DNA from: Eubacteriales bacterium
GTDB lineage: Bacteria; Bacillota; Clostridia; Oscillospirales; CAG-272
Direction: 5' to 3'
Length of the DNA stretch: 30,834 nucleotides
Assembly: GCA_045533995.1 (NCBI GenBank)
Contig: JAZSIV010000033.1
Location: 1-30,834 of the forward strand
In this document: piece by piece, positions 5,981 to 16,810 of the stretch
Numbering within the stretch: position 1 is the stretch's first letter
Layout: each line of letters opens with the position of its first letter
Program-made: the position numbers and the translations under genes
Notes under the pieces: model-generated
The model's database searches: none
Seen by the model: only the letters and a program-made list of their open reading frames with translations
What the model was told of the DNA's origin: nothing

Positions 5981-8149
5981 TTATTCAGCTATTCGTCCTA
6001 TCTCACCAAATGGTATTTTCTTAAATCCTAACTTATATGCTTCGGAATCCTCCGAAAGAGTGCAGTCCCCTTTCTCATAGTTCGGAAGCTGCTTGCAATA
6101 AAGATCAACAAACGTAAAATTATTTTCAACCACGCTCATATCAACGACTGATTGACTGATTCTGTCGCACGTATTATTTTCATTATTTACAATATAGTAC
6201 ACATTCATGCGGATAATATTATTTGCTGGGTTACAGCACAGCATAGGGTCATCAACGTCCCCCTTATAATCGGGAGTGTACGGAATAATATCTCCATATC
6301 CAGAAAAAGCATCAAGCCATTCCTTACTCTCTTGCATCTTGATAAGCTGCTTCGGCATCGATACCGTATACTCGTAAAACCACGACTCCTTGCCGCTTAT
6401 CATACCGTCACGAGCACGGTCATCATAATCTATGGTAGCTTTCTTTGTATTTATTAAAAGATTATTCTCAATGATATTATCACGTCCGCCGCCTACCTGT
6501 ATTCCATAACCTGTAACGTTTGCTATGACGTTGCCGTAAACAGTCTGCCCCGATAGCGCGTCATCCAGATAAATTCCCTGCGCATAAGCAGAACCGCTGC
6601 CAACGTCGTGTATGTAATTATAACGAATAATTCCACCGTACCAATTATAAGCACGTCCTGCATATATCGCACCGCAGTCACTCGTTTCAAGGCAAACATT
6701 ATATATCTCGTTATATTCAATAGTATGCTTAGGGCCAACCCACGTTATAGCTTGGTGAGGAGCATCGTGAATCTCATTATGAGACACCGTAGTACCGCAT
6801 CCGCCACTGATCCACACCGCGCTCTTATAGGTTCGACTAACCTGTGCCCAATGATGTATGTAATTGTTATATACCAAGTTATTCGAGGAAGTAAGAGTTG
6901 TAGCATCGCCACCGCTCACTACAACAGCCGACCCACCCACCTGACATATCTCGTTGTTCTCAATGGAAATATCCCTTCCGCTTATATTTATAGCATCATA
7001 TCCGAGGCTCTGGATCTTGCAGTTTTTCACTATAATATGATCACCCGAAAGAACAAATCCGCTCATTCTCGAGCCTGTCACCTCAAAGCCATCAAAGACA
7101 ACATAGGATAAATTTTCCCCGCTGATAATATTGTCATCAAGTAACGATAATGTTATAGAGCTATTCGTGAAATCCACGGTAGGATAAAGATAGAGAACGA
7201 GATTCTCCCGATCTATATAATATTCTCCCGGAGCATCGGTTTCCGCAAAAACGTTAAAAAAGTAGAAGGGTCTTGCAGAATCTATACCGTAGTTCATCTT
7301 AGGATCTTCAAACGATACAACAAGATTTTTAAGGTCAACGTTTTTTACCTCAATCGCCCCATCTGCCCACAAATGCTTAAAATAACCAAAAACCCAAAGC
7401 TCATCCAAATTCCACTTAAGTCCGCGCTCTTTTATTGCCTCACCGTCACCCTTGATTCTGAAGGTGTCAAAGCCATTACTTGCACCTGTGTACAGATTTG
7501 GGTCACTGTCCGTTATGTTGGGGTAACGTGAAATTGTCATTCTTTCCCCGTCAACAAAGAGCTCGGAATAACCAAGAGACGTCTCGTCTCTCTTTACGGC
7601 AAAACCGTATCTGTGCAGTTCACCGATATCCTCGGCAATCAGCCCATATTTTGTAAGATCCACCTTAAGGACTGCTTCCTTTGCCGCCTCGTCATTAAGA
7701 AGTTCCTTTTCATCATCACTTAGTGGCTCAAAATCTCTTGCAGAAAGGCTAACTCCACCTGTAAGCACGGCTCCTCCCTTCTCTGCCGACAGATATCTTA
7801 TGGTAGAATACTCTGTGCCCGAATCCTCGGAGGTAAATTTGATACCATTGGTAACGTTATACTTACCCGACGCGACAAGAACAGTAACACCGCCATTTGG
7901 CAAGCCCTCATCGCTTTTCATCTTGCGGATTCTTTCCTGCGCCTCGGATATATTCTGAAAGGGAGCTTCCTTGCTTCCATCACCATTCTTGAAAGCAGAA
8001 TCTACGTAAATAACGGTGCCCTCTACCTCGGGCCACTTATCAGAAGCTATATCGTCGGCACAATCTCCCCCGCACGAGCAGGATGCAAGTATGCCGGCAC
8101 ATAAAAAGCAAACCAATAATATCGCTAACGGTCTTTTAAGCTCTTTCAT
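5981..8149 (-). CDS. Lipoprotein with right-handed parallel beta-helix repeats (putative carbohydrate-active enzyme)
   Basis: 722 aa. Signal peptide with lipobox LAS-C24. Repeated IxxNxIxx rungs (IENNEICQV, VYNNYIHH, IEYNEIYNV, IRYNYIHDV), DCGAIYAG and GIYLDD. Confidence 0.8.
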   Translation of the reverse strand: MKELKRPLAILLVCFLCAGILASCSCGGDCADDIASDKWPEVEGTVIYVDSAFKNGDGSKEAPFQNISEAQERIRKMKSDEGLPNGGVTVLVASGKYNVTNGIKFTSEDSGTEYSTIRYLSAEKGGAVLTGGVSLSARDFEPLSDDEKELLNDEAAKEAVLKVDLTKYGLIAEDIGELHRYGFAVKRDETSLGYSELFVDGERMTISRYPNITDSDPNLYTGASNGFDTFRIKGDGEAIKERGLKWNLDELWVFGYFKHLWADGAIEVKNVDLKNLVVSFEDPKMNYGIDSARPFYFFNVFAETDAPGEYYIDRENLVLYLYPTVDFTNSSITLSLLDDNIISGENLSYVVFDGFEVTGSRMSGFVLSGDHIIVKNCKIQSLGYDAINISGRDISIENNEICQVGGSAVVVSGGDATTLTSSNNLVYNNYIHHWAQVSRTYKSAVWISGGCGTTVSHNEIHDAPHQAITWVGPKHTIEYNEIYNVCLETSDCGAIYAGRAYNWYGGIIRYNYIHDVGSGSAYAQGIYLDDALSGQTVYGNVIANVTGYGIQVGGGRDNIIENNLLINTKKATIDYDDRARDGMISGKESWFYEYTVSMPKQLIKMQESKEWLDAFSGYGDIIPYTPDYKGDVDDPMLCCNPANNIIRMNVYYIVNNENNTCDRISQSVVDMSVVENNFTFVDLYCKQLPNYEKGDCTLSEDSEAYKLGFKKIPFGEIGRIAE

Positions 8150-8199: not shown

Positions 8200-8901
8200 T
8201 TATCTTGCACCGTATGGGAAAATTATATTCCCCCAAATGTCAAAGAGGTAATCCTTTGATTTAATGAGCTCTGCAACGTCATAGGAATCGCGCAGAAGAT
8301 TCTTCGAGCGCACAAGACACATAGCTTCATGCCCCTCGTGATGATAGTCGCTTGCACCCGTGACGAGCAGGTCGTTTTCCTTTGCGTATTTTGCAGTGAT
8401 ACCCACGGGTCTGTTATGCCTTGGGTGAAGATTGAAGCTTTCCACACCGTCGATGCAGTCGAGAGGTGCGCGCTCCAAGCCCTTGTGGAATGGATGTGCC
8501 TGAATTATGAGATTTTTTTCATTTTTGAAATCTTTGTAAAATTCCCTAAGCCCTCTCGGAATGTAGCTTGCCATCTTCTCGATATCATCAGGACAGATGC
8601 CGTAAACGAGATAATCGTTCTTGTTCTCCTCAAAGCGGATCTCAGCTCCAAGTATCACTTTCACACCAAGCTTTTTTCCCGCATCCAGTGCTAAAAAATA
8701 ATCGTCAAGATAGCTTTTTACCTCATCATACGCAATTGTTTCAGGGGTAAGATGATTAGTAATAACGATAGAATCAGCGCCGGCCGCGGCATACGTCTTT
8801 ATTACCTCGTCCGGTTTGAAATCGGCACATCTGCTTACAGGAGACGTATGAGCGTGAAGCTCTGTTTTGTATTTGTACTTGCTTATAACTTCCTTAATCA
8901 T
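8200..8901 (-). CDS. PHP-domain metal-dependent phosphoesterase
   Basis: Contains ELHAHT, ITNH, QAHPF and ASDYHH. The likely start ATG 8901 directly follows the PPTase stop codon. Confidence 0.85.
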   Translation of the reverse strand: MIKEVISKYKYKTELHAHTSPVSRCADFKPDEVIKTYAAAGADSIVITNHLTPETIAYDEVKSYLDDYFLALDAGKKLGVKVILGAEIRFEENKNDYLVYGICPDDIEKMASYIPRGLREFYKDFKNEKNLIIQAHPFHKGLERAPLDCIDGVESFNLHPRHNRPVGITAKYAKENDLLVTGASDYHHEGHEAMCLVRSKNLLRDSYDVAELIKSKDYLFDIWGNIIFPYGAR

Positions 8902-8902
8902 T

Positions 8903-9586
8903 TTAACCTCTCTCAAGGGACTTGACCTCTATCCCTTTATCACACGTAAATTCTATTTTTTCACCTTTGGGAGCACAAACAGTCATTATATATCTTTCCT
9001 CGCCAAAGGACAGCAAAAAGCTCTTGAGCATTATTTCTTTCATAGTTTTATCCAAAGTCGTGTCGAGCAAGGGCAATTCTTTTGAAAGCCCACCCCCAAG
9101 ATACTTTGATAAAGCTTCTTTTGAAGTCCATATTTTATAAAAATTCATTAAAAACTTCTCTTCGCCGAGAAGTTTTTTTTCGTTTTCAGAGAAAAAGCGG
9201 TCTGCTATCTTTCGAACGCGCTTCGCATCGTCACAAAAACGGTTGGGATATAGCCTTTCGATATCAACTCCTATTTTTTTGCCTTCGCCATCAATAATAG
9301 CCGATACAGACAAACTTGCGCTGTGCGAAAAATTGAAATCCACACCACACATATTACAAAAATAGGGTCTTCCGTCCTCGTTTCTTAAAATTGTAAGGTC
9401 GGCAAAGCTTGGCAAAAGCATATCTGCGAGCTTTTTTAATGCCAAAAGTGCCGCATAGCTTTCCTTTTTATGATCATAATTCTTTATATTTTCGAGTCGG
9501 CATATCTCATTTTCGCCAAAGCACGAGATAGACGATGTCTCTACCGCAATATTCGAATTGTCGGTTATATAGACGAAAATGCTCAT
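8903..9586 (-). CDS. 4'-phosphopantetheinyl transferase (Sfp-like)
   Basis: Contains NEDGRPY, FNFSHS, IGVDIE and FYKIWTSKEALSK. Start moved to ATG 9586, after AAGGGGGAG. Confidence 0.85.
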   Translation of the reverse strand: MSIFVYITDNSNIAVETSSISCFGENEICRLENIKNYDHKKESYAALLALKKLADMLLPSFADLTILRNEDGRPYFCNMCGVDFNFSHSASLSVSAIIDGEGKKIGVDIERLYPNRFCDDAKRVRKIADRFFSENEKKLLGEEKFLMNFYKIWTSKEALSKYLGGGLSKELPLLDTTLDKTMKEIMLKSFLLSFGEERYIMTVCAPKGEKIEFTCDKGIEVKSLERG

Positions 9587-9617
9587 ATACTCCCCCTTAA
9601 AAAATTCATATAAAGTT

Positions 9618-9646
9618 ATTGTACACCAAAAAGCCGCCTTTTTCAA
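9618..9646 (-). promoter_or_regulatory. sigma-A promoter of the PPTase-PHP genes
   Basis: Minus strand TTGAAA (9646-9641), 17 bp spacer, TACAAT (9623-9618). Confidence 0.65.
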
Positions 9647-9760
9647 TAAATTTTAATATTTTTTTATTTTCTGACACAAGCTGCGACTCATTGAGACGGT
9701 TTGACACTCTTTTCTGCCTTATACTTACGGTGCACAGACAAAAAGGAGGTGGGAATATGA

Positions 9761-10186
9761 ATGTCAGATAAAGGTACGTCCGAGCTTGTTGAGGATGCCT
9801 GCATAAGAGGTGTGCTTGACAAGCTTGCCGATGAATACATCATTTTTTGTTATACGTTGGAAAAGGATGAAAAGGAGAACGAATGTGACAAGAAGAAATC
9901 AAAGGAGAAAGGCAGGCGGTTTCCGAATATTGCAGGATTTTGCCGATACTGCGGTATTGGGCAGGAGCAATATGAACGGCTGTCAAAAAAATACGTATCC
10001 GAATTTGAAAAGCTTCGGTCTATCTTTGAGGACGAGGCGCTCAATTCGGAAATTTCTCCGTCGATACTTTCGGCATATCTTAAGAGACGGCTCGGGTACG
10101 GCGACTCCTCCAATGAAAAAACAGAGGTCGACACAGGACAGCTCAAGCTTATTTTTGAGCACGACATTCTTCTTGACGGAGAATAA
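9761..10186 (+). CDS. Putative terminase small subunit
   Basis: 141 aa, directly upstream of TerL. FPNIAGFCRYCGI looks like an HTH segment. FEDEALN and AYLKRRLGYGD...TEV resemble the P22 gp3-type TerS pattern. RBS AAGGAGGT at 9743-9750. Confidence 0.65.
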   Translation: MSDKGTSELVEDACIRGVLDKLADEYIIFCYTLEKDEKENECDKKKSKEKGRRFPNIAGFCRYCGIGQEQYERLSKKYVSEFEKLRSIFEDEALNSEISPSILSAYLKRRLGYGDSSNEKTEVDTGQLKLIFEHDILLDGE

Positions 10187-10191
10187 AGGCT

Positions 10192-11526
10192 ATGCCCGAG
10201 CAAAATATTCTCCCGCGTGAGATACATATAAGCGGTACTCCGAATGAAAGGCAAAAAAGCTTTTTTGCATCGAGAACGCGCTATACCGCATACGGCGGCG
10301 CGCGAGGCGGAGGCAAGTCGTGGGCTCTGCGGCGCAAGCTTTGCGCAATGTGTCTGCGATATGCAGGGATAAGATGTCTTATCGTCCGCCGAAGTCTTCC
10401 GGAGCTAAAAAACAACCACGTTATCCCATTTCTGCGCGAATACGGCTCTTTCGTCAGCTACAAGGAAGCTGACAACTGCCTGATCTTCCCCAATTCAAGC
10501 AGAATATTTATGGGATACTGTGCATCCGACCGAGACGTTCTTCGTTATCAAGGTCAGGAATACGACGTTATCGCCATCGACGAGGCAACGCAGCTGAGCG
10601 AATACAGATTTTCAATTTTCAAGGCCTGTCTGCGAGGCGTGGGAAAAATTCCCCGTCGTATGTACCTTACCTGTAATCCCGGGGGCATTGGACACGCTTG
10701 GGTCAAACGGCTTTTTGTTGACCGCGATTTTCGCGCGAACGAAGACCCAAATGACTATAGCTTTATCCCTGCTCTCGTGTATGATAACAAGATTTTAAGC
10801 GAAGCGGATCCCGATTACATAAGATCTCTTGAATCTCTTCCCGAAAGACTGCGTGACGCTTGGCTCTATGGAAGATGGGACGTCTTTGAAGGACAGTTCT
10901 TTCCCGAATTCGATACCGCAGTTCATGTTTGCGGCCCTTCTGCTATTCCAAACAAGCTCAGATATTTTGCTGCATTTGATTACGGTTTCGATATGCTTGC
11001 CGCGCTTTTGCTTGGGATAGATACAGAGGGAATCATCTACGTACTTGACGAACACTGTAAATCGGGACTGACTCTTTCCGAGGCTGCCGAGCGCGTAAGC
11101 GGTCTATGCCGCGGATATCCCGTCGAATATGCCGTTGCCTCTCCCGACCTTTGGAACAGAAGACAGGACAGCGGGAAAAGCGGATTTGAAATAATGCAGG
11201 CTATCTGCGGTATGCCGCCAATGATATGCGCTGATGACCGCAGAATACCCGGTTGGCGCATTTTGCGCGAATATCTCTCATGCAAAAGCTCTTCCCCTAA
11301 GCTAAAGATATCGTCAAAATGCCACGATCTTATCCACTCGCTCCCCGCCCTGCTTTGTGACCCGAACCGTCCCGAAGATGCTTCAAGCGAGCCGCACTCG
11401 ATAACTCACTCTCCCGAAGCGCTACGATATGCTCTGATGAGCAGGATATCTGCACCTAAGGATAACGACGAGACAGGCTTTATTTTTCCCTCAAAGCACT
11501 CTTCGGGGAAAATAGGTTATAACTAA
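10192..11526 (+). CDS. Terminase large subunit
   Basis: 444 aa. Q-motif NERQ, Walker A YGGARGGGKS, Walker B VIAIDEA, coupling motif TCNPGG, and RNase H-like nuclease motifs AFDYG, SPDLW and HSPEALRY. Confidence 0.95.
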   Translation: MPEQNILPREIHISGTPNERQKSFFASRTRYTAYGGARGGGKSWALRRKLCAMCLRYAGIRCLIVRRSLPELKNNHVIPFLREYGSFVSYKEADNCLIFPNSSRIFMGYCASDRDVLRYQGQEYDVIAIDEATQLSEYRFSIFKACLRGVGKIPRRMYLTCNPGGIGHAWVKRLFVDRDFRANEDPNDYSFIPALVYDNKILSEADPDYIRSLESLPERLRDAWLYGRWDVFEGQFFPEFDTAVHVCGPSAIPNKLRYFAAFDYGFDMLAALLLGIDTEGIIYVLDEHCKSGLTLSEAAERVSGLCRGYPVEYAVASPDLWNRRQDSGKSGFEIMQAICGMPPMICADDRRIPGWRILREYLSCKSSSPKLKISSKCHDLIHSLPALLCDPNRPEDASSEPHSITHSPEALRYALMSRISAPKDNDETGFIFPSKHSSGKIGYN

Positions 11527-11621
11527 AACGTTTTTTGTCTGTGCATATAAATTGAATTCTTAAGCAATTCAAATTTTTTCAGAAGCCTATGCCGCAAGGC
11601 AAGGCTTCGGAATGGAGATCT

Positions 11622-13364
11622 ATGTCAGTTTTCAAACAAAAAAATGCCATTGCCTCTGCCAAAATAAAGGGCTTTGAGGGAATTGATGCGACTACGTCGC
11701 TTGAAAAAACGTCGTCAGCATACGATATGACGAACTTCAGGATCCTTCCCGACGGAACTCTTGAAAAACGGTGCGGATTTGCACCTATCGCCAAATGCTC
11801 ATCTAAAGTAAGGGCTATCTGGTCTGGCGAGCTTGACAAGGAGCAGCATACCTTCATTTTATCCGAAAGCACCGTATTTTCTCTTGACTCAAACAAAAGC
11901 TCACCCGCAAATATAGGATACGTCGACACCCGCGAGGGTGATGCAAGCTTCATCTTTTTTGATGCGAAGCTATATCTTATGGACGGAAGCGGAATATATA
12001 GGGTAAGTCCAAATGCGGTAAGCTCCGTCGAGGGCTATGCACCTCTTTGCGGAAAGGATTGGCCCAATGCAACCGTTGGAGAAGACTACGAGCCTCTGAA
12101 TTACACCACAAGACATATAAGAATGACCTACAACGTGATGGAGCCCTTGATATATCTCTGTGTTAAATACGTGATCTCTTCAATAGATGCCGTTTACGTG
12201 AACGGAAAGCTTTTGACGGATACGTCAAGCTACTATTTTGATCTTGAGCTTATGAGCGTCTGTGTCCTTGGCCTGAACGTCGGTGACCGTGTTGAGCTTT
12301 TTCTTACAGTAGACAGCTCGGAGATCGACTGTTCAAAACTCTTCTCATGCAAACACTCTGTTGTGTACGGCGGACTGACCGACAGCAGACTGTTCCTATG
12401 GGGTGGAGTCCGGAACAATCTTATGTTCGGTTCGCACAGCATAGACGAAGAATCGCTCCTCGAATCAAAAAAGGTATACACAAACACAGCAGATCTTTAT
12501 ATCCCCGTGGATGCCGCATTTACAGTCGGACGCGAGGGCAGAAGAATAACTGCGGTCAGCCGTCATTATGACAGATTGCTCATTTTTACCGACGGTGACA
12601 CCTGGATGTCATCAAGCCCCGCGGGCGACGGAGAGCCGCTTGAAGCTATCACCATAAACTCGTCGCACGGCTGCACCTCTGACGGCGCTGCAATAATGTG
12701 CGGAAACGATCCTATCTGTGTAGGAGACGGAGAAATACTTCGTTGGAGCACAGACACCGACGAGCTTAACGAGTGTAATGCGAAATGCATATCACAAAAG
12801 ATAAACAGCCGACTTGACAGATCGTTTTTCGATAACGCGATAATGTTCTTAAACAAGCCTACCTCAGAGCTTTTCTTTTCCGACCCAAACGATGAAAGCG
12901 ACACGGTCTGGGTCTACAATCTTGATACAGATAACTGGTACAGATTCAGTGGGATAAGAGCAGATTATTTCTTCTCATCAAACGGCAAGATGGGCTTTGT
13001 TTCCTATGATACGGTATATCTTTTTGACGATTCTCTTTACAAGGACACCTACAGTGACGGAAAGGAATCGGAAATCGTTGCGGAGTTTGTGACCCACCCG
13101 ACAGACCTTTTCATAAACGGCAACAAGAAAAGGCTTTATGGTATGCTGCTCGAAGCAGATCTTGACGGCGGCGAGGTGAACGTCAAATGTATGTCGGACG
13201 GCAAAGCTATAAGTGAAATTTCCTTTGAGAGCGAAAAGCATTTCCCAATAAGCATTCAGAAACGTATAAACTCACACAGATTTTGCTACACCTCTCTTCG
13301 TATTTCTGCAGGCGGAGACGCTCGGCAAAAGATATACGGTACGGCGATCTGGGCAAAGGCATAA
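11622..13364 (+). CDS. Putative packaged-DNA stabilisation / tail nozzle protein (P22 gp10 / T7 gp12-like beta-propeller)
   Basis: About 580 aa. The N-terminal GFEGID...MTNFRILPDGTLEKRCGF pattern and beta-rich repeats (RLFLWGG, ITAVSRHYDRLLIFT, INSSHGC, VWVYN...WYRF) fit this family by eye. GGAG precedes ATG 11622. Confidence 0.6.
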   Translation: MSVFKQKNAIASAKIKGFEGIDATTSLEKTSSAYDMTNFRILPDGTLEKRCGFAPIAKCSSKVRAIWSGELDKEQHTFILSESTVFSLDSNKSSPANIGYVDTREGDASFIFFDAKLYLMDGSGIYRVSPNAVSSVEGYAPLCGKDWPNATVGEDYEPLNYTTRHIRMTYNVMEPLIYLCVKYVISSIDAVYVNGKLLTDTSSYYFDLELMSVCVLGLNVGDRVELFLTVDSSEIDCSKLFSCKHSVVYGGLTDSRLFLWGGVRNNLMFGSHSIDEESLLESKKVYTNTADLYIPVDAAFTVGREGRRITAVSRHYDRLLIFTDGDTWMSSSPAGDGEPLEAITINSSHGCTSDGAAIMCGNDPICVGDGEILRWSTDTDELNECNAKCISQKINSRLDRSFFDNAIMFLNKPTSELFFSDPNDESDTVWVYNLDTDNWYRFSGIRADYFFSSNGKMGFVSYDTVYLFDDSLYKDTYSDGKESEIVAEFVTHPTDLFINGNKKRLYGMLLEADLDGGEVNVKCMSDGKAISEISFESEKHFPISIQKRINSHRFCYTSLRISAGGDARQKIYGTAIWAKA

Positions 13365-13388
13365 TAAAAAAGAAAGGTAATTAACAAA

Positions 13389-14945
13389 ATGAAGATCAAA
13401 TCAAAGGCTTGGGAGCAGTATGAAGCAGGCAAAGAGTACAAGCGAAGGATCGGTCTTTACGAGACTGTACGTCAAAACGAAAGGTTCTTCAGAGGTGACC
13501 AGTGGTATGCCACGCACACCGAGGATCTGCCAAAGCCGGTTTTCAACATAATCAGAAGAATAACCGATTATCTGGTATGCAGTGTCGCATCGTCTGACAT
13601 TTCTATCCGATACACGGCGGAAAATATGCCATTCCTTGAAAGAAAGGCAGATGCAGAGCTACTTAAATCCTGCCTTGACGGTATGAATAAAAACGTTGCC
13701 TACCGTTGGGAAAAGGACCGTATGAACAATAAGATATACTCTGTTCTCTATGATGCCGCCGTAAGCGGAGACGGAGTTCTCTATTGCTATTGGGATCAGA
13801 ACGTTAAAAACGCTCAGGATTTCACGGGCGACATTACGACAGAGGTTATCGACAACGTAAACCTCTTTCTTTCCGACGTTAACTGTCCCGACATCCAGTC
13901 GCAGGATTACATAATCCTTGCCGGGAGAAAAAGCGTGATTTCATTACGCGAAGAAGCGAGAAGACACGGAGCGAGTGAGGAAGATATAAGAAATATCGTT
14001 TCGGACAAGGTCGAGGGCTCTCAATCGGGAAATCTCTCCGAATACGAGCTTGAATGTGACGAGAGCGAGAAAGCGACCTATATTATAAAATTCTGGCGAG
14101 AGGACGGATACGTTGTCTTTGAAAAATCAACGCGCTCTGCCGTGATCTGTCGGGTTAAGACTGCTTGCAAGCTGTATCCTGTTGCATATTTCAACTGGTA
14201 TACGACGAAAAACAGCTTTCACGGAACCTCTCCCATAACATCCCTTATTTCCAACCAGAAATATCTCAATCGCGCCTATGCTATGGTTATGAAGCATATG
14301 ACCGATACGGCATTTTCAAAGGTTGTTTACGATAAATCAAGAATTCCCGAATGGTCGAACGGTGTCGGTGAGGCAATAGCCGCAGTTGGCGGCGGAAGTA
14401 TTTCCGACGCGGTTTCGGTAGTTGGAGTTGGCAAGATGCAGGATCATTATCTCGACCTCATCGAAAATACTCTTAATACCACAAAGGACCTTATGGGAGC
14501 GACCGAATCAGCCCTCGGAGATGAGCAGGCGCTTAATACAAGTGCGATACTTGCCCTTCAGGAAACGTCGCGCATTCCTCTTCATCAGGTGCGCTCGTCA
14601 TTACATACCTGTCTTGAGGATCTTGCGGATATTTGGGCAGATATGATGTGCGCATACTATCCACGCGAGAGAATGTTGCTTTGCGAAAAAGACGGTGTAA
14701 CAGAAGCATATTCGGTGGATTTCTCCTTGCTTAGAGCATCCCTGCTCCGTGCAAGAGTAGATATACTTGAGGTCAGCCGTTACAGCGCGGCAGGAGCGCA
14801 GAATATGCTTGACAAGCTGCTTGACGGCGGATATATAACTCCCGCCGAATACGTAAGACGACTTCCCGCAGGTCTTGTTCTGAACCGTCAGGAGCTTATA
14901 GACCTTCTCGAGCAAAAAGAAAAAGGAGAAAAGACAAATGAATGA
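13389..14945 (+). CDS. Portal protein (P22-like)
   Basis: 518 aa, largely helical. Contains NERFFRGDQW, PVFNIIRRI, DAAVSGDGVLYCYWD and ISNQKYLNR. Size and position also fit a portal. Confidence 0.85.
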   Translation: MKIKSKAWEQYEAGKEYKRRIGLYETVRQNERFFRGDQWYATHTEDLPKPVFNIIRRITDYLVCSVASSDISIRYTAENMPFLERKADAELLKSCLDGMNKNVAYRWEKDRMNNKIYSVLYDAAVSGDGVLYCYWDQNVKNAQDFTGDITTEVIDNVNLFLSDVNCPDIQSQDYIILAGRKSVISLREEARRHGASEEDIRNIVSDKVEGSQSGNLSEYELECDESEKATYIIKFWREDGYVVFEKSTRSAVICRVKTACKLYPVAYFNWYTTKNSFHGTSPITSLISNQKYLNRAYAMVMKHMTDTAFSKVVYDKSRIPEWSNGVGEAIAAVGGGSISDAVSVVGVGKMQDHYLDLIENTLNTTKDLMGATESALGDEQALNTSAILALQETSRIPLHQVRSSLHTCLEDLADIWADMMCAYYPRERMLLCEKDGVTEAYSVDFSLLRASLLRARVDILEVSRYSAAGAQNMLDKLLDGGYITPAEYVRRLPAGLVLNRQELIDLLEQKEKGEKTNE

Positions 14946-15513
14946 TGAGATAATGATCAACGAGGAAAAAATACTCCCTGTCGGAGAACCTCAAGAAGAG
15001 CTTACCGACGCTGATGAAGTCATAACGGAATATGATCTCGACGAAGAGGAAAAAGAGCTCCCCTTGACTGTTCCCGAAGAAAAGTCGACTTCAAAAGAGA
15101 CAGAGAACGTGAGAGACGAGGAAACGGTAGAATCACTCAAAAAGGAGCTTGAGGATATGCGCCGTGAGCTTGATGAAAAGAGATCGGCTTTCGAGCGAAT
15201 GAGCCGTGAGCTTGGTGAATTCTCCGCGCTTTTTCCAAATCAAAATCCCTCAAATATTCCCGATTCGGTCTGGGAGAGCGTTCGCGCCGGTATTCCCTTG
15301 GCAGCCGCATACGCCTTGTACGAAAAGAAGGCTCTCTCCCGCCTTGAGGCAGCGGCAAAAATCAATCAAAAAAACGGTGCTGCAAGCACCGGTGCACTCG
15401 GACGCGAAATAACAGAAAGCTTTTTTACACCCGATGAGGTAAGAGCAATGTCACGCGACGAAGTAAGAACAAATTATAAAAAAATTTTAGATTCCATGAA
15501 AAAATGGAACTGA
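14938..15513 (+). CDS. Putative capsid scaffolding protein
   Basis: 191 aa. Acidic low-complexity N-terminus, a coiled coil, and a C-terminal helical pair (FTPDEVRAMSRDEVRTNYKKILDSMKKW). Lies between portal and capsid and overlaps the portal stop (ATGAATGA). Confidence 0.7.
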   Translation: MNDEIMINEEKILPVGEPQEELTDADEVITEYDLDEEEKELPLTVPEEKSTSKETENVRDEETVESLKKELEDMRRELDEKRSAFERMSRELGEFSALFPNQNPSNIPDSVWESVRAGIPLAAAYALYEKKALSRLEAAAKINQKNGAASTGALGREITESFFTPDEVRAMSRDEVRTNYKKILDSMKKWN

Positions 15514-15534
15514 TAAAACGAAAGGATCTATACT

Positions 15535-16365
15535 ATGGCTATTACAAATTTTATTCCTACAATATGGAGCGAAAATCTTTATACAGAGCTTGACAAGCAG
15601 TATATTGCCGTTACAAACTGCAATCGTGATTTTGAGGGCGATATCAAAAACAAAGGTGCCGTTGTAAAGATATGCGGTGTTGGTGCCGTTGACGTAAACG
15701 ACTACACCAAAAACACTGATATGTCAATGGCTCAGGCACTCTCCGACACAGTTAAGGAGCTCGCCATCGATCAGGCTAAATACTTCAACTTCCAGATCGA
15801 CGATATCGACAGAGCGCAGTGCTCACCCAAGCTTATGAATGCCGCTATGAAGATCGCCGCAAGCTCGCTCGCAAACGAAGCGGATAAATATATCTACTCT
15901 CTCTACTCCGAGGCAGGAAACACAATTTCAAGCGCCGCGGCATCGATTGAGAATATCGTTGACCTTATAATCGATGCGAGAACAAAGCTCTACGCCAACA
16001 ACGTTACCGACGCGCACGAGGTAGTTATCGAGGTCTCTCCCGAGGTAGCGGCACTTATCCTCAAGGCAAAGGTAAATCTTGCAACAGACAACACCTCTGC
16101 TCTTGAGGCAGGCTGTCTTGGCAGCATCGGCGGCTGCAAGCTCTTCGTTTCAAGCAACATTGCAACCGAGGACGTTTCCGACAAAAAGCATCACAAGTGT
16201 CTTGTAAGAACAAAGCGCGCTATCGCGTTTGCGGAGCAGCTTTCTGAAATTGAGGCATACCGCCCCGAAAAGAGATTCTCCGATGCTGTAAAGGGTCTTC
16301 ACCTCTACGGCGCAAAGGTCGTTTATCCCACAGAAATGGTACTTCTCGACCTTGTTATCGCATAA
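15535..16365 (+). CDS. Major capsid protein (HK97 fold, P22/N4-gp56-like)
   Basis: 276 aa. Contains MAITNFIPTIWS, FEGDIKNKGAVVKI, IDQAKYFNFQIDDID and FSDAVKGLHLYGAKV. Confidence 0.88.
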   Translation: MAITNFIPTIWSENLYTELDKQYIAVTNCNRDFEGDIKNKGAVVKICGVGAVDVNDYTKNTDMSMAQALSDTVKELAIDQAKYFNFQIDDIDRAQCSPKLMNAAMKIAASSLANEADKYIYSLYSEAGNTISSAAASIENIVDLIIDARTKLYANNVTDAHEVVIEVSPEVAALILKAKVNLATDNTSALEAGCLGSIGGCKLFVSSNIATEDVSDKKHHKCLVRTKRAIAFAEQLSEIEAYRPEKRFSDAVKGLHLYGAKVVYPTEMVLLDLVIA

Positions 16366-16375
16366 GGAGTGAGAA

Positions 16376-16765
16376 ATGACAAACAAAGACATCTACGTCC
16401 GCGCTATGTATCAGCTTGGCGAGGTGGCTGACAGCGAGGAAAATGACGATTACGAGGAAAGGGCCCCCTATCTGCTTGCCGCATTCTGCACAGAGGTAGC
16501 TCCGATAGTGGAAGCATATTATGAAGCAAAGGGTCTTGACACCCCCGCCGAACCCGACTGTGTCCGCCTTCCCCTTGAATTTGATTTTCCCTATGACGAA
16601 AAGTTTGTCAGCCCCGCGGCGATGTATCTTGCCGCAATGCTTATAATTGACGAGAATACCGAGCTTTCCGACAAGCTCTTTGACAAATATTGCGACCTTA
16701 TGGCAAGTATACAGTCAAAAATTCCGTCAAAAATAGAAAAGATCGCACAAAAGTACGATTTTTAA
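16376..16765 (+). CDS. Putative head-tail adaptor (T7 gp11 / P22 gp4-like)
   Basis: 129 aa, helical. MTNKDIYVRAMYQLGE resembles adaptor N-termini. Lies directly after the capsid gene with RBS AAGGAG. Confidence 0.55.
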   Translation: MTNKDIYVRAMYQLGEVADSEENDDYEERAPYLLAAFCTEVAPIVEAYYEAKGLDTPAEPDCVRLPLEFDFPYDEKFVSPAAMYLAAMLIIDENTELSDKLFDKYCDLMASIQSKIPSKIEKIAQKYDF

Positions 16766-16773
16766 CCTAATAT

Positions 16774-16810
16774 AAAAAGGGCTGTCGCCTTGGCGACAGC
16801 CCACTTTCTT
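16774..16810. terminator. Bidirectional terminator shared by the phage module and icd
   Basis: AAAAA-GGGCTGTCGCC-tt-GGCGACAGCCC-ACTTTCTT. Confidence 0.85.

Follow-up and report, generated by a model that had tools for sequence, protein, structure and literature searches.

An operon of seven genes that encodes the parts of a podovirus-type DNA-packaging head lies among housekeeping genes on contig JAZSIV010000033.1 (assembly GCA_045533995.1) of an uncultured bacterium of the order Oscillospirales. The window analyzed here is the whole 30,834-nucleotide stretch of that contig, and the operon occupies its positions 9761-16765. We interpret this locus as encoding the structural parts of a podovirus-derived particle that has been domesticated and fixed in the chromosome, i.e., a viriform of uncultured Oscillospirales that resembles a gene transfer agent (GTA) and is distinct from FpGTA, the GTA of Faecalibacterium prausnitzii. 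We assign this interpretation a probability of about 0.6. As in GTAs generally, phage structural and packaging genes are fixed in the host and integration, replication and lysogeny genes are lacking. Judged from its genes, the cluster is a strong candidate for a new GTA lineage, for which DNA packaging and transfer are predicted only. The original prediction, made from the letters of the window, had read the locus as domesticated, and synteny, tree congruence, dN/dS ratios, protein folds and the distance to viral contigs all support that view.

Organization of the operon

All seven open reading frames (ORFs) of the 7.0-kb operon are intact and on the + strand, with no internal stop and with short or overlapping gaps, and they are bounded by a promoter on the 5′ side and a terminator on the 3′ side. 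The gene list of the original prediction, seven consecutive intact ORFs on the same strand with an identity for each, proved correct when coordinates and assignments were checked. The features are as follows (AF2, AlphaFold 2).

9672-9707, + strand: activator-site array, hexamers TGACAC (9672), TGCGAC (9682), TGAGAC (9692) and TGACAC (9702) with an exact 10-bp period
9720-9725, + strand: -10 element TATACT, 12 nt (9708-9719) past the last hexamer and without a usable -35, read from the sequence
9731-9751, + strand: leader TGCACAGAC followed by the ribosome-binding site AGGAGGTG, from about 45 upstream regions compared side by side
9761-10186, + strand: g1, small terminase (TerS) of the gp3/PF16677 family, from Pfam and orthologue matches
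10192-11526, + strand: g2, large terminase (TerL), PF03237 and PF04466, phrog_979 (E 3e-42)
11589-13364, + strand: g3, podovirus tail nozzle/hub with the P22 gp10 / T7 gp12 fold, from AF2 model and Foldseek
13389-14945, + strand: g4, P22-type portal, PF16510 (E 1e-10) and phrog_156 (E 8e-25)
14938-15513, + strand: g5, scaffolding-like protein, inferred from position and composition
15535-16365, + strand: g6, major capsid protein with the HK97 fold, PF25209 / phrog_267
16376-16765, + strand: g7, head-to-tail adaptor similar to P22 gp4 / Sf6 gp7, from AF2 model and Foldseek
16779-16802, both directions: bidirectional intrinsic terminator common to the convergent icd gene, 10-bp stem with 8 G-C pairs

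The encoded parts are those of a procapsid (portal, scaffold, capsid), of DNA filling (TerS, TerL) and of stub-tail closure (adaptor, nozzle). The flanking genes are housekeeping genes, with serA, serC, trpS and genes for PTS EIIC, a PHP-domain protein and a 4′-phosphopantetheinyl transferase (PPTase) on one side and icd and acn on the other. The window contains no integrase, repressor, replication, lysis or fibre genes and no tRNA genes. The edges of the operon are clean and free of gene debris, and none of the pseudogenised lysogeny, replication, tail or lysis modules of a prophage are present. The conserved unit is exactly the seven genes and their own promoter. The earlier statement that nothing else phage-like, and in particular no repressor, is present thus holds within the window but not genome-wide, as a phage-derived repressor/activator module lies on another contig.

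Identification of the gene products

TerS, TerL and the portal are strongly conserved, at 59-78% identity. TerL, identified by its PF03237 and phrog_979 matches, is 67-78% identical across the genus. The g1 protein by itself scores under the cut-off of the PF16677 gp3-family model, which is matched by 16 of 28 g1 orthologues (best E 1.6e-7), and it carries a conserved PNLAGFCRYLGI motif that looks like a helix-turn-helix (HTH). The g6 product is a minimal HK97-fold capsid protein of 276 aa (phrog_267, E 6e-49; capsid of PDB 8e16, E 1e-54). Its closest cultured relatives are the long-tailed phages phiCP39-O, AP45 and D6E (40-43% identity), and it gave no match to the N4-gp56 model TIGR04387 at E ≤ 0.01. 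Between the portal and capsid genes, g5 encodes a protein with a coiled-coil N terminus and a conserved C-terminal motif, whose PDB matches are to coiled coils only; we infer from position and composition that it is scaffold-like.

Fold searches were needed because PDB sequence-profile searches with g1, g3, g5 and g7 returned nothing useful. By sequence, g3 matches PHROG only as 'virion structural protein', and it is the fastest-evolving gene of the cluster (24-46% identity between loci). The top Foldseek PDB matches of its AF2 model (pLDDT 90) are the tail nozzles of Pa223, P22 (gp10), T7 (gp12) and SU10, with E values of 5e-22 to 1e-13. For g7 (pLDDT 89), the top 13 matches, and 16 of the top 17, are Sf6 gp7 or P22 gp4, with weak E values of about 0.1, probabilities of up to 0.96 and TM scores of 0.44-0.55. 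The fold comparison proposed earlier confirmed, for the two unannotated genes, a nozzle and an adaptor. The label podovirus-type, also given earlier, suits nozzle, adaptor and portal, whereas the capsid has long-tailed phages as its closest cultured relatives.

Conservation and intactness of the cluster

Of the 24 species sampled from the genus, 23 have the capsid gene, usually in one copy, without stops and at 55-75% identity; the sole genome without it is 71% complete, and that of the window (G000, a 1.24-Mb assembly) is 68% complete. Every fetched locus of the genus has the g1-g7 order as far as the contig extends. A wider scan, with one genome per species, yielded at least 542 relatives, of which the best 80 loci were inspected; all come from metagenome-assembled genomes of uncultured Eubacteriales or Oscillospiraceae from ruminant and human guts, including UMGS1002, which is placed in Oscillospirales, and all have the g1-g7 order. 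The same order was found in about 100 species-level genomes of uncultured Oscillospirales, with no integrase, replication module or att sites in any of these loci. The original prediction held that a domesticated element would show seven-gene synteny without an integrase and would not be confined to one strain, and both expectations were borne out, the latter by the 23 species of the genus.

An ORF-length test was applied to the 70 loci that contain the whole span; 60 of these complete loci passed and 10 were flagged. In 8 of the 10, the portal frame is open and its apparent start codon is not ATG, GTG or TTG, and portal truncation was therefore rejected. These loci (L051:7800-7830, and L054, L057, L059, L063, L071, L092 and L121) have no such codon for about 100 codons past the upstream stop and show a GGAGGA site followed by ATC GTT ATT, which suggests a rare ATT or ATC start codon for the portal of that clade.

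The nozzle gene g3 is cleanly missing from 7 of the 70 complete loci, among them those of the window's two closest relatives. In a nozzle-less clade (L101:10837-12087, + strand, with L106 and L109), the adaptor homology forms the C-terminal quarter of a 416-aa protein; the 310-aa N-terminal part, which has no PHROG match, may replace the nozzle there, and the gene is followed by a 211-aa uncharacterised ORF. A locus from another family of the order (L023:7498-19998, genome G040) is rearranged to portal, adaptor, nozzle, scaffold and capsid, followed by a 316-aa protein resembling tail-fibre-assembly proteins and then a 1665-aa protein, with no adjacent terminase; it may represent a fuller form of the particle, or else a prophage.

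The flanks of the relatives' loci are housekeeping genes (HPr kinase, RadA, RF-2, SpoU, amidase and others) in several differing contexts, the most frequent flanking family occurring at no more than about 19% of loci.

Inheritance and selection

We compared a cluster tree built from TerL, portal and capsid with a host tree built from acn and trpS for 17 species. Cluster and host distances are correlated (r = 0.67, Mantel p = 1e-4), and 8 of 14 splits are common to both trees, where chance predicts 0.2 and no more than 3 were reached in any of 2000 label permutations. The window's genome and G024 are paired in both. Branch lengths for the cluster exceed those for housekeeping genes about 3.5-fold. 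NG86 dN/dS ratios are 0.05-0.3 for all seven genes and 0.04-0.075 for acn, values that are rough as dS is saturated (0.7-3.4, some undefined). The cluster is inherited vertically under purifying selection, as GTAs are. We read its distribution as the result of a single old acquisition, after which the cluster was lost in places and rearranged locally; occasional transfer may have occurred as well.

Viral counterparts are distant. The best capsid match among the 2.9 million viral contigs of IMG/VR is 46% identical, compared with 55-87% among chromosomal copies; a handful of contigs also share portal or scaffold, and one 6.5-kb 'viral' contig is a fragment of a chromosomal cluster of this kind. 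Congruence with the host tree, dN/dS well below 1 (with the saturation just noted) and remote viral relatives had each been anticipated for a domesticated element, and each was found.

The operon is preceded by a phage-type late promoter

Alignment of 70 upstream regions revealed four TGnnAC hexamer slots with an exact 10-bp period. Across loci, a -10 element (TAnAAT) lies 12-13 nt past the last hexamer, followed by a GCACAGAC leader and then the ribosome-binding site. Three or more strict in-phase hexamers occur in 52 of the 70 orthologous regions, versus 0.15 of 70 in shuffled sequences and none on the reverse strand. The hexamers vary by clade, being TGAGAC or TGACAC in the window's genus and TGGCAC or TGGGAC elsewhere. 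A reading of TGGCAC as a sigma-54 element was rejected because its spacing does not fit and TGAGAC stands in its place in the window's genus. In the window's genome assembly the array is unique to the cluster promoter, and in five near-complete relatives further arrays were found only before a stand-alone DUF6291 gene or a 29-codon ORF.

The same array is present in phages. In IMG/VR phage contigs of 30-44 kb, it lies between a gene for a 159-173-aa protein and an HNH-TerS-TerL late operon, and this protein matches DUF1492 and sigma-70 region 4, i.e., late activators of the RinA/ArpU type. In genome G243 it also stands in front of a late operon (TerS-TerL-portal) that belongs to an unrelated long-tailed prophage. 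The observation that the array stands before phage late operons beside activator genes indicates that it is a phage late promoter of the activator-dependent kind.

The G243 prophage (L357:504-17649, contig C17) has five TGGGAC/TGGTAC hexamers with a 10-bp period, and its late operon encodes a 904-aa protein whose size suggests a tape measure. This genome also carries the seven-gene cluster with an array of its own, and cross-activation between prophage and cluster is possible.

The TGCACAGAC leader at window positions 9731-9740, between the -10 element and the ribosome-binding site, is kept in most loci of the genus but missing from the promoters of DUF6291 genes; it may mark where transcription starts or serve as an additional control site. 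Stand-alone DUF6291 genes with the array were found in unrelated contexts (L252:7305-8184, L253:4260-5058, L241:3305-3889, L255, L254 and L256). Their products are similar to phage replication organisers. The gene is present in 7 of 24 genus genomes and preceded by the array in 6 of these 7, with hexamer variants that match the cluster promoter of the same species. Given this sparse occurrence in the genus and no association with the cluster at family level, DUF6291 was rejected as the array-binding regulator; it looks like a co-regulated accessory gene of phage origin. At L242:12036-12275 (genome G023, contig C50), a phased array and a -10 element precede the 29-codon hydrophobic ORF alone, which is convergent with lysS.

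An unlinked activator/repressor module

The phage activators match a single place in the window's genome, a gene for a 126-aa protein at positions 2603-2983 of contig C160; the match is weak (tblastn E 0.004). The C-terminal HTH of this protein is the same as that of the phage activators, and its nearest Atlas clusters are labelled Sigma70_r4, DUF1492 or ArpU. The activator gene is present as a single copy in 23 of 24 genus genomes, at 46-69% identity. Strong activator matches were found in 9 of 22 cluster-positive genera versus 1 of 58 cluster-negative ones (Fisher p = 2e-5, a test that ignores kinship between genera).

In about 22 of 25 loci, the activator gene follows a cysteine-rich ORF of 66-90 aa. 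It faces a divergent gene for a 204-aa protein with an XRE-type HTH and a self-cleavage domain of the LexA/UmuD/CI S24 type (PDB LexA, E 8.5e-17). In the window's genome this module occupies C160:2603-4000 (locus L418:1498-2852), where the 204-aa repressor gene diverges from the 66-aa cysteine-rich ORF and the 126-aa activator gene, and the arrangement is conserved across the genus. All but one of the 25 fetched loci contain a CGGATTTCCG-like palindrome, of which the repressor-activator intergenic regions of G000 and G024 have two copies, and the hexamer array is absent from all fetched repressor/activator loci. A genome-encoded activator and a matching promoter 5′ of terS would together make up a late-activator regulon of the RinA/ArpU/DUF1492 type. 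The conserved array, the unlinked activator and the LexA/CI-like repressor would also fit control at the level of the host.

A proposed circuit and its alternatives

In the mechanism that we propose, the CI-like (XRE-HTH/S24) repressor would hold the activator and the small zinc-ribbon ORF off through CGGATTTCCG-type operators. DNA damage would lead to self-cleavage of the repressor, after which the zinc-ribbon protein and the activator would be made. The activator would bind along a single face of the helix at the four TGnnAC hexamers, substituting for a -35, and recruit RNA polymerase, turning the operon on and leading to head production in a fraction of the cells. The seven proteins would build a procapsid, which the terminase would fill with cellular DNA by a headful mechanism and which adaptor and nozzle would seal. 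Lysis genes and fibres might be encoded elsewhere, be supplied by something else or be absent. As the repressor is proposed to control the activator, DNA damage would be the trigger of head production. The full combination, that of a two-locus, SOS-triggered GTA of podovirus origin, with capsid and portal unrelated to those of FpGTA, fixed in a broad clade of uncultured Oscillospirales from gut and rumen and in which a CI-like repressor frees a RinA-like activator that fires the operon via the four-hexamer array, is one that we hold tentatively, at somewhat less than even odds. Such a GTA could be one unidentified source of gut virome particles filled with 4-10 kb of host DNA.

Several observations weigh against a GTA-like particle. 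A similarity search of the window, the conserved flanks and the 68%-complete genome revealed no holin, endolysin, tail fibre, receptor-binding or plug genes; given the incompleteness of the genome and the reliance on similarity, this does not establish that lysis and fibre genes are absent. Loss of the nozzle, as seen in several lineages, is unexpected in a delivery device. The cluster TerS retains an apparent HTH, unlike TerS of the alphaproteobacterial RcGTA and, as reported, that of FpGTA, so that non-specific packaging cannot be assumed. The proposed link between activator and array comes from phage synteny and co-occurrence, and the element is known from genes alone, with one public run matching at 7% of sampled words. 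The dN/dS ratios are only indicative because of dS saturation. The spread at family level is patchy, with matches in 26 of 80 genera, about 22 of these matches being strong, and among the genera nearest by trpS identity roughly every second one is without the cluster. Its chromosomal site varies between subclades, and the icd-acn neighbourhood occurs without it in other species.

The patchy spread and variable positions, together with a rate of evolution about 3.5 times that of housekeeping genes, would be expected if the locus were simply a prophage remnant undergoing decay or a mobile element that had been captured by accident. We regard this as highly improbable, since the seven genes are intact in about 100 species across up to 45% divergence of the capsid protein, the cluster tree is congruent with that of the hosts, copies are mostly single with no pseudogenes seen, and no close viral counterpart was found. 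The original prediction had argued that random prophage decay was unlikely to leave such a locus, and its intactness and host-congruent tree strongly disfavour the remnant reading.

A live alternative, which we consider unlikely, is that the cluster is a head module responsive to phages, serving as a satellite or in defence. Its array would then be fired chiefly when infecting or resident phages supply RinA-like activators. Its heads might take the tails and lysis functions of a helper to spread host DNA, following the logic of capsid-forming phage-inducible chromosomal islands (cf-PICIs) without their mobility, or they might divert packaging and abort the infection. The array is indeed a genuine phage late promoter, known from phage contigs of 30-44 kb and from an unrelated prophage in G243, which itself bears the cluster, and phage-type DUF6291 genes carry it as well; moreover, the cluster lacks lysis and adsorption genes of its own, and some lineages dispense with the nozzle. 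However, the host-encoded activator and its SOS-type repressor are conserved in 23 of 24 genus genomes, which argues that no helper is needed for induction. A podovirus adaptor and nozzle would be a misfit for the tails of long-tailed helpers, integrase, replication and excision functions are absent, and five near-complete genus genomes contain no array-bearing prophage late operon.

The particle may also be domesticated for a function other than gene transfer, e.g., altruistic lysis or killing as by PBSX, DNA disposal or another structural role, with incidental packaging of host DNA and no delivery. This would agree with the PBSX-like regulatory logic of a repressor and a sigma-like activator and with the failure to find receptor-binding genes, and the authors of the FpGTA study, in the text available, voice the same doubt about their own system (PMC12946183). 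We nevertheless judge it quite unlikely. PBSX kills by means of a contractile tail, to which nothing encoded in the cluster is comparable, and the strong conservation of TerS, TerL and portal argues that DNA packaging itself is under selection.

Comparison with known systems

FpGTA is the closest known system to the cluster in the literature available to us. As described there (Nat Commun 2026; PMC12946183), it is a near-ubiquitous chromosomal operon in the genus Faecalibacterium. Operon I has 10 ORFs in 10.5 kb, a second operon encodes baseplate, fibre, receptor-binding protein, holin and endolysin, and experiments showed particles of 40 nm with about 8.5 kb of DNA (PMC12946183). Both systems belong to Oscillospirales, are podovirus-like, combine TerS, TerL, portal, scaffold, capsid and short-tail parts, and lack replication and integration genes. 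They differ in size: the cluster comprises 7 ORFs over 7.0 kb, and a limited search for a second locus with structural or lysis genes found none. The FpGTA capsid is annotated as N4-gp56 family and the cluster capsid does not match TIGR04387, a separation that relies on the annotation of FpGTA and not on its sequences. Moreover, the N4-type clusters of the order have only TerL in common with the cluster, at 25-39% identity. For these two reasons the cluster was not filed under FpGTA. FpGTA TerS reportedly lacks a DNA-binding domain and the cluster TerS has an HTH-like motif, and the available description of FpGTA mentions neither a promoter array nor a repressor/activator module like those found here. 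Particles of FpGTA have been obtained experimentally, whereas the cluster is known here from genes alone. The original prediction, which knew of no characterised GTA of this architecture in a clostridial lineage, is dated in this respect, as the podovirus-like, GTA-like FpGTA comes from the same order, though with another capsid family (PMC12946183).

GTAs of the RcGTA type share with the cluster vertical inheritance, evolution faster than that of housekeeping genes, a head cluster with accessory loci elsewhere and, as predicted for the cluster, control by the host. They are derived from siphoviruses, have 15-17 genes unrelated in sequence and are controlled by CtrA/GafA and quorum sensing, in contrast to the CI-like/RinA-like pair proposed for the cluster. 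PBSX of Bacillus subtilis is a host-fixed defective phage that packages host DNA into a killer particle; it is contiguous over about 28 kb, includes a contractile tail and lysis genes, and is controlled by a repressor of the Xre type together with Xpf, a sigma-like late activator of the terminase/head operon. The cluster is probably SOS-inducible alike, with a predicted repressor/activator logic equal to that of xre/xpf. It differs in having unlinked regulatory and structural loci, a podovirus stub tail and no known lysis genes.

The compact TerS-TerL-portal-scaffold-capsid-connector module without tails, fibres or lysis genes is also found in cf-PICIs, and the late-type promoter could respond to phage activators, as theirs could. 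However, cf-PICIs are mobile and self-packaging and carry integrase, regulators and replication genes; the cluster carries none of these, co-diverges with its host and shows not one of the features of cf-PICI mobility. With P22/Sf6-like and T7-like podoviruses it shares the folds of portal, adaptor (gp4/gp7) and nozzle (gp10/gp12) and the part list of a DNA-filled head. It differs from them in lacking tailspike, needle or plug and ejection proteins, in a capsid nearest to those of long-tailed phages and in an unusual gene order, with the nozzle between TerL and portal.

What is new here is a lineage and an architecture distinct from FpGTA, a very small part list and a proposed unlinked circuit of repressor, activator and array. 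The cluster represents an independent, well-delimited GTA candidate, with a seven-gene part list, a signature of domestication across about 100 or more species and a testable circuit. It would offer a tractable system for studying the conversion of a podovirus head into a host organelle, the minimum size of a GTA and the share of gene flow among gut and rumen Clostridia that is carried by such particles, and its promoter array provides a sequence handle for finding late operons and their domesticated relatives in metagenomes. GTA-like packaging is common in gut Oscillospirales, and in the text available a locus was proposed for Faecalibacterium only; several uncultured Oscillospirales and Christensenellales package host fragments of 4-10 kb without a known locus (PMC12946183). 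The cluster is a candidate locus for some of these taxa.

Neighbouring genes

A 722-aa right-handed beta-helix protein is encoded two genes away from the cluster (window 5981-8149, - strand). It is missing from the window's two closest relatives, which also lack the nozzle gene. It was rejected as a tailspike or core part, having only three weak partial matches in 24 genus genomes and no PHROG match; it is probably a strain-specific glycan-active protein, though it might still act as a spike. Two unknown proteins encoded upstream of g1 in one subclade (F9 and F10) were likewise set aside, as they occur in only 14-16 loci and have no Pfam or PHROG matches. In one clade (L054:11981-13093 and relatives), recA is encoded on the opposite strand, two genes past the cluster on its downstream side, which is noteworthy given the proposed SOS control and may be a coincidence.

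The gene for the Sfp-type PPTase (window 8200-9646, - strand) adjoins the cluster at about 19 of 100 loci, where both its side and its orientation vary, and the PHP-domain gene does so at about 5; examples are L015, L017, L031, L036, L038, L062 and L080. At these frequencies, about 19% and 5%, and on varying sides, neither was retained as part of the element. Their adjacency probably reflects an ancestral neighbourhood that was broken by inversions.

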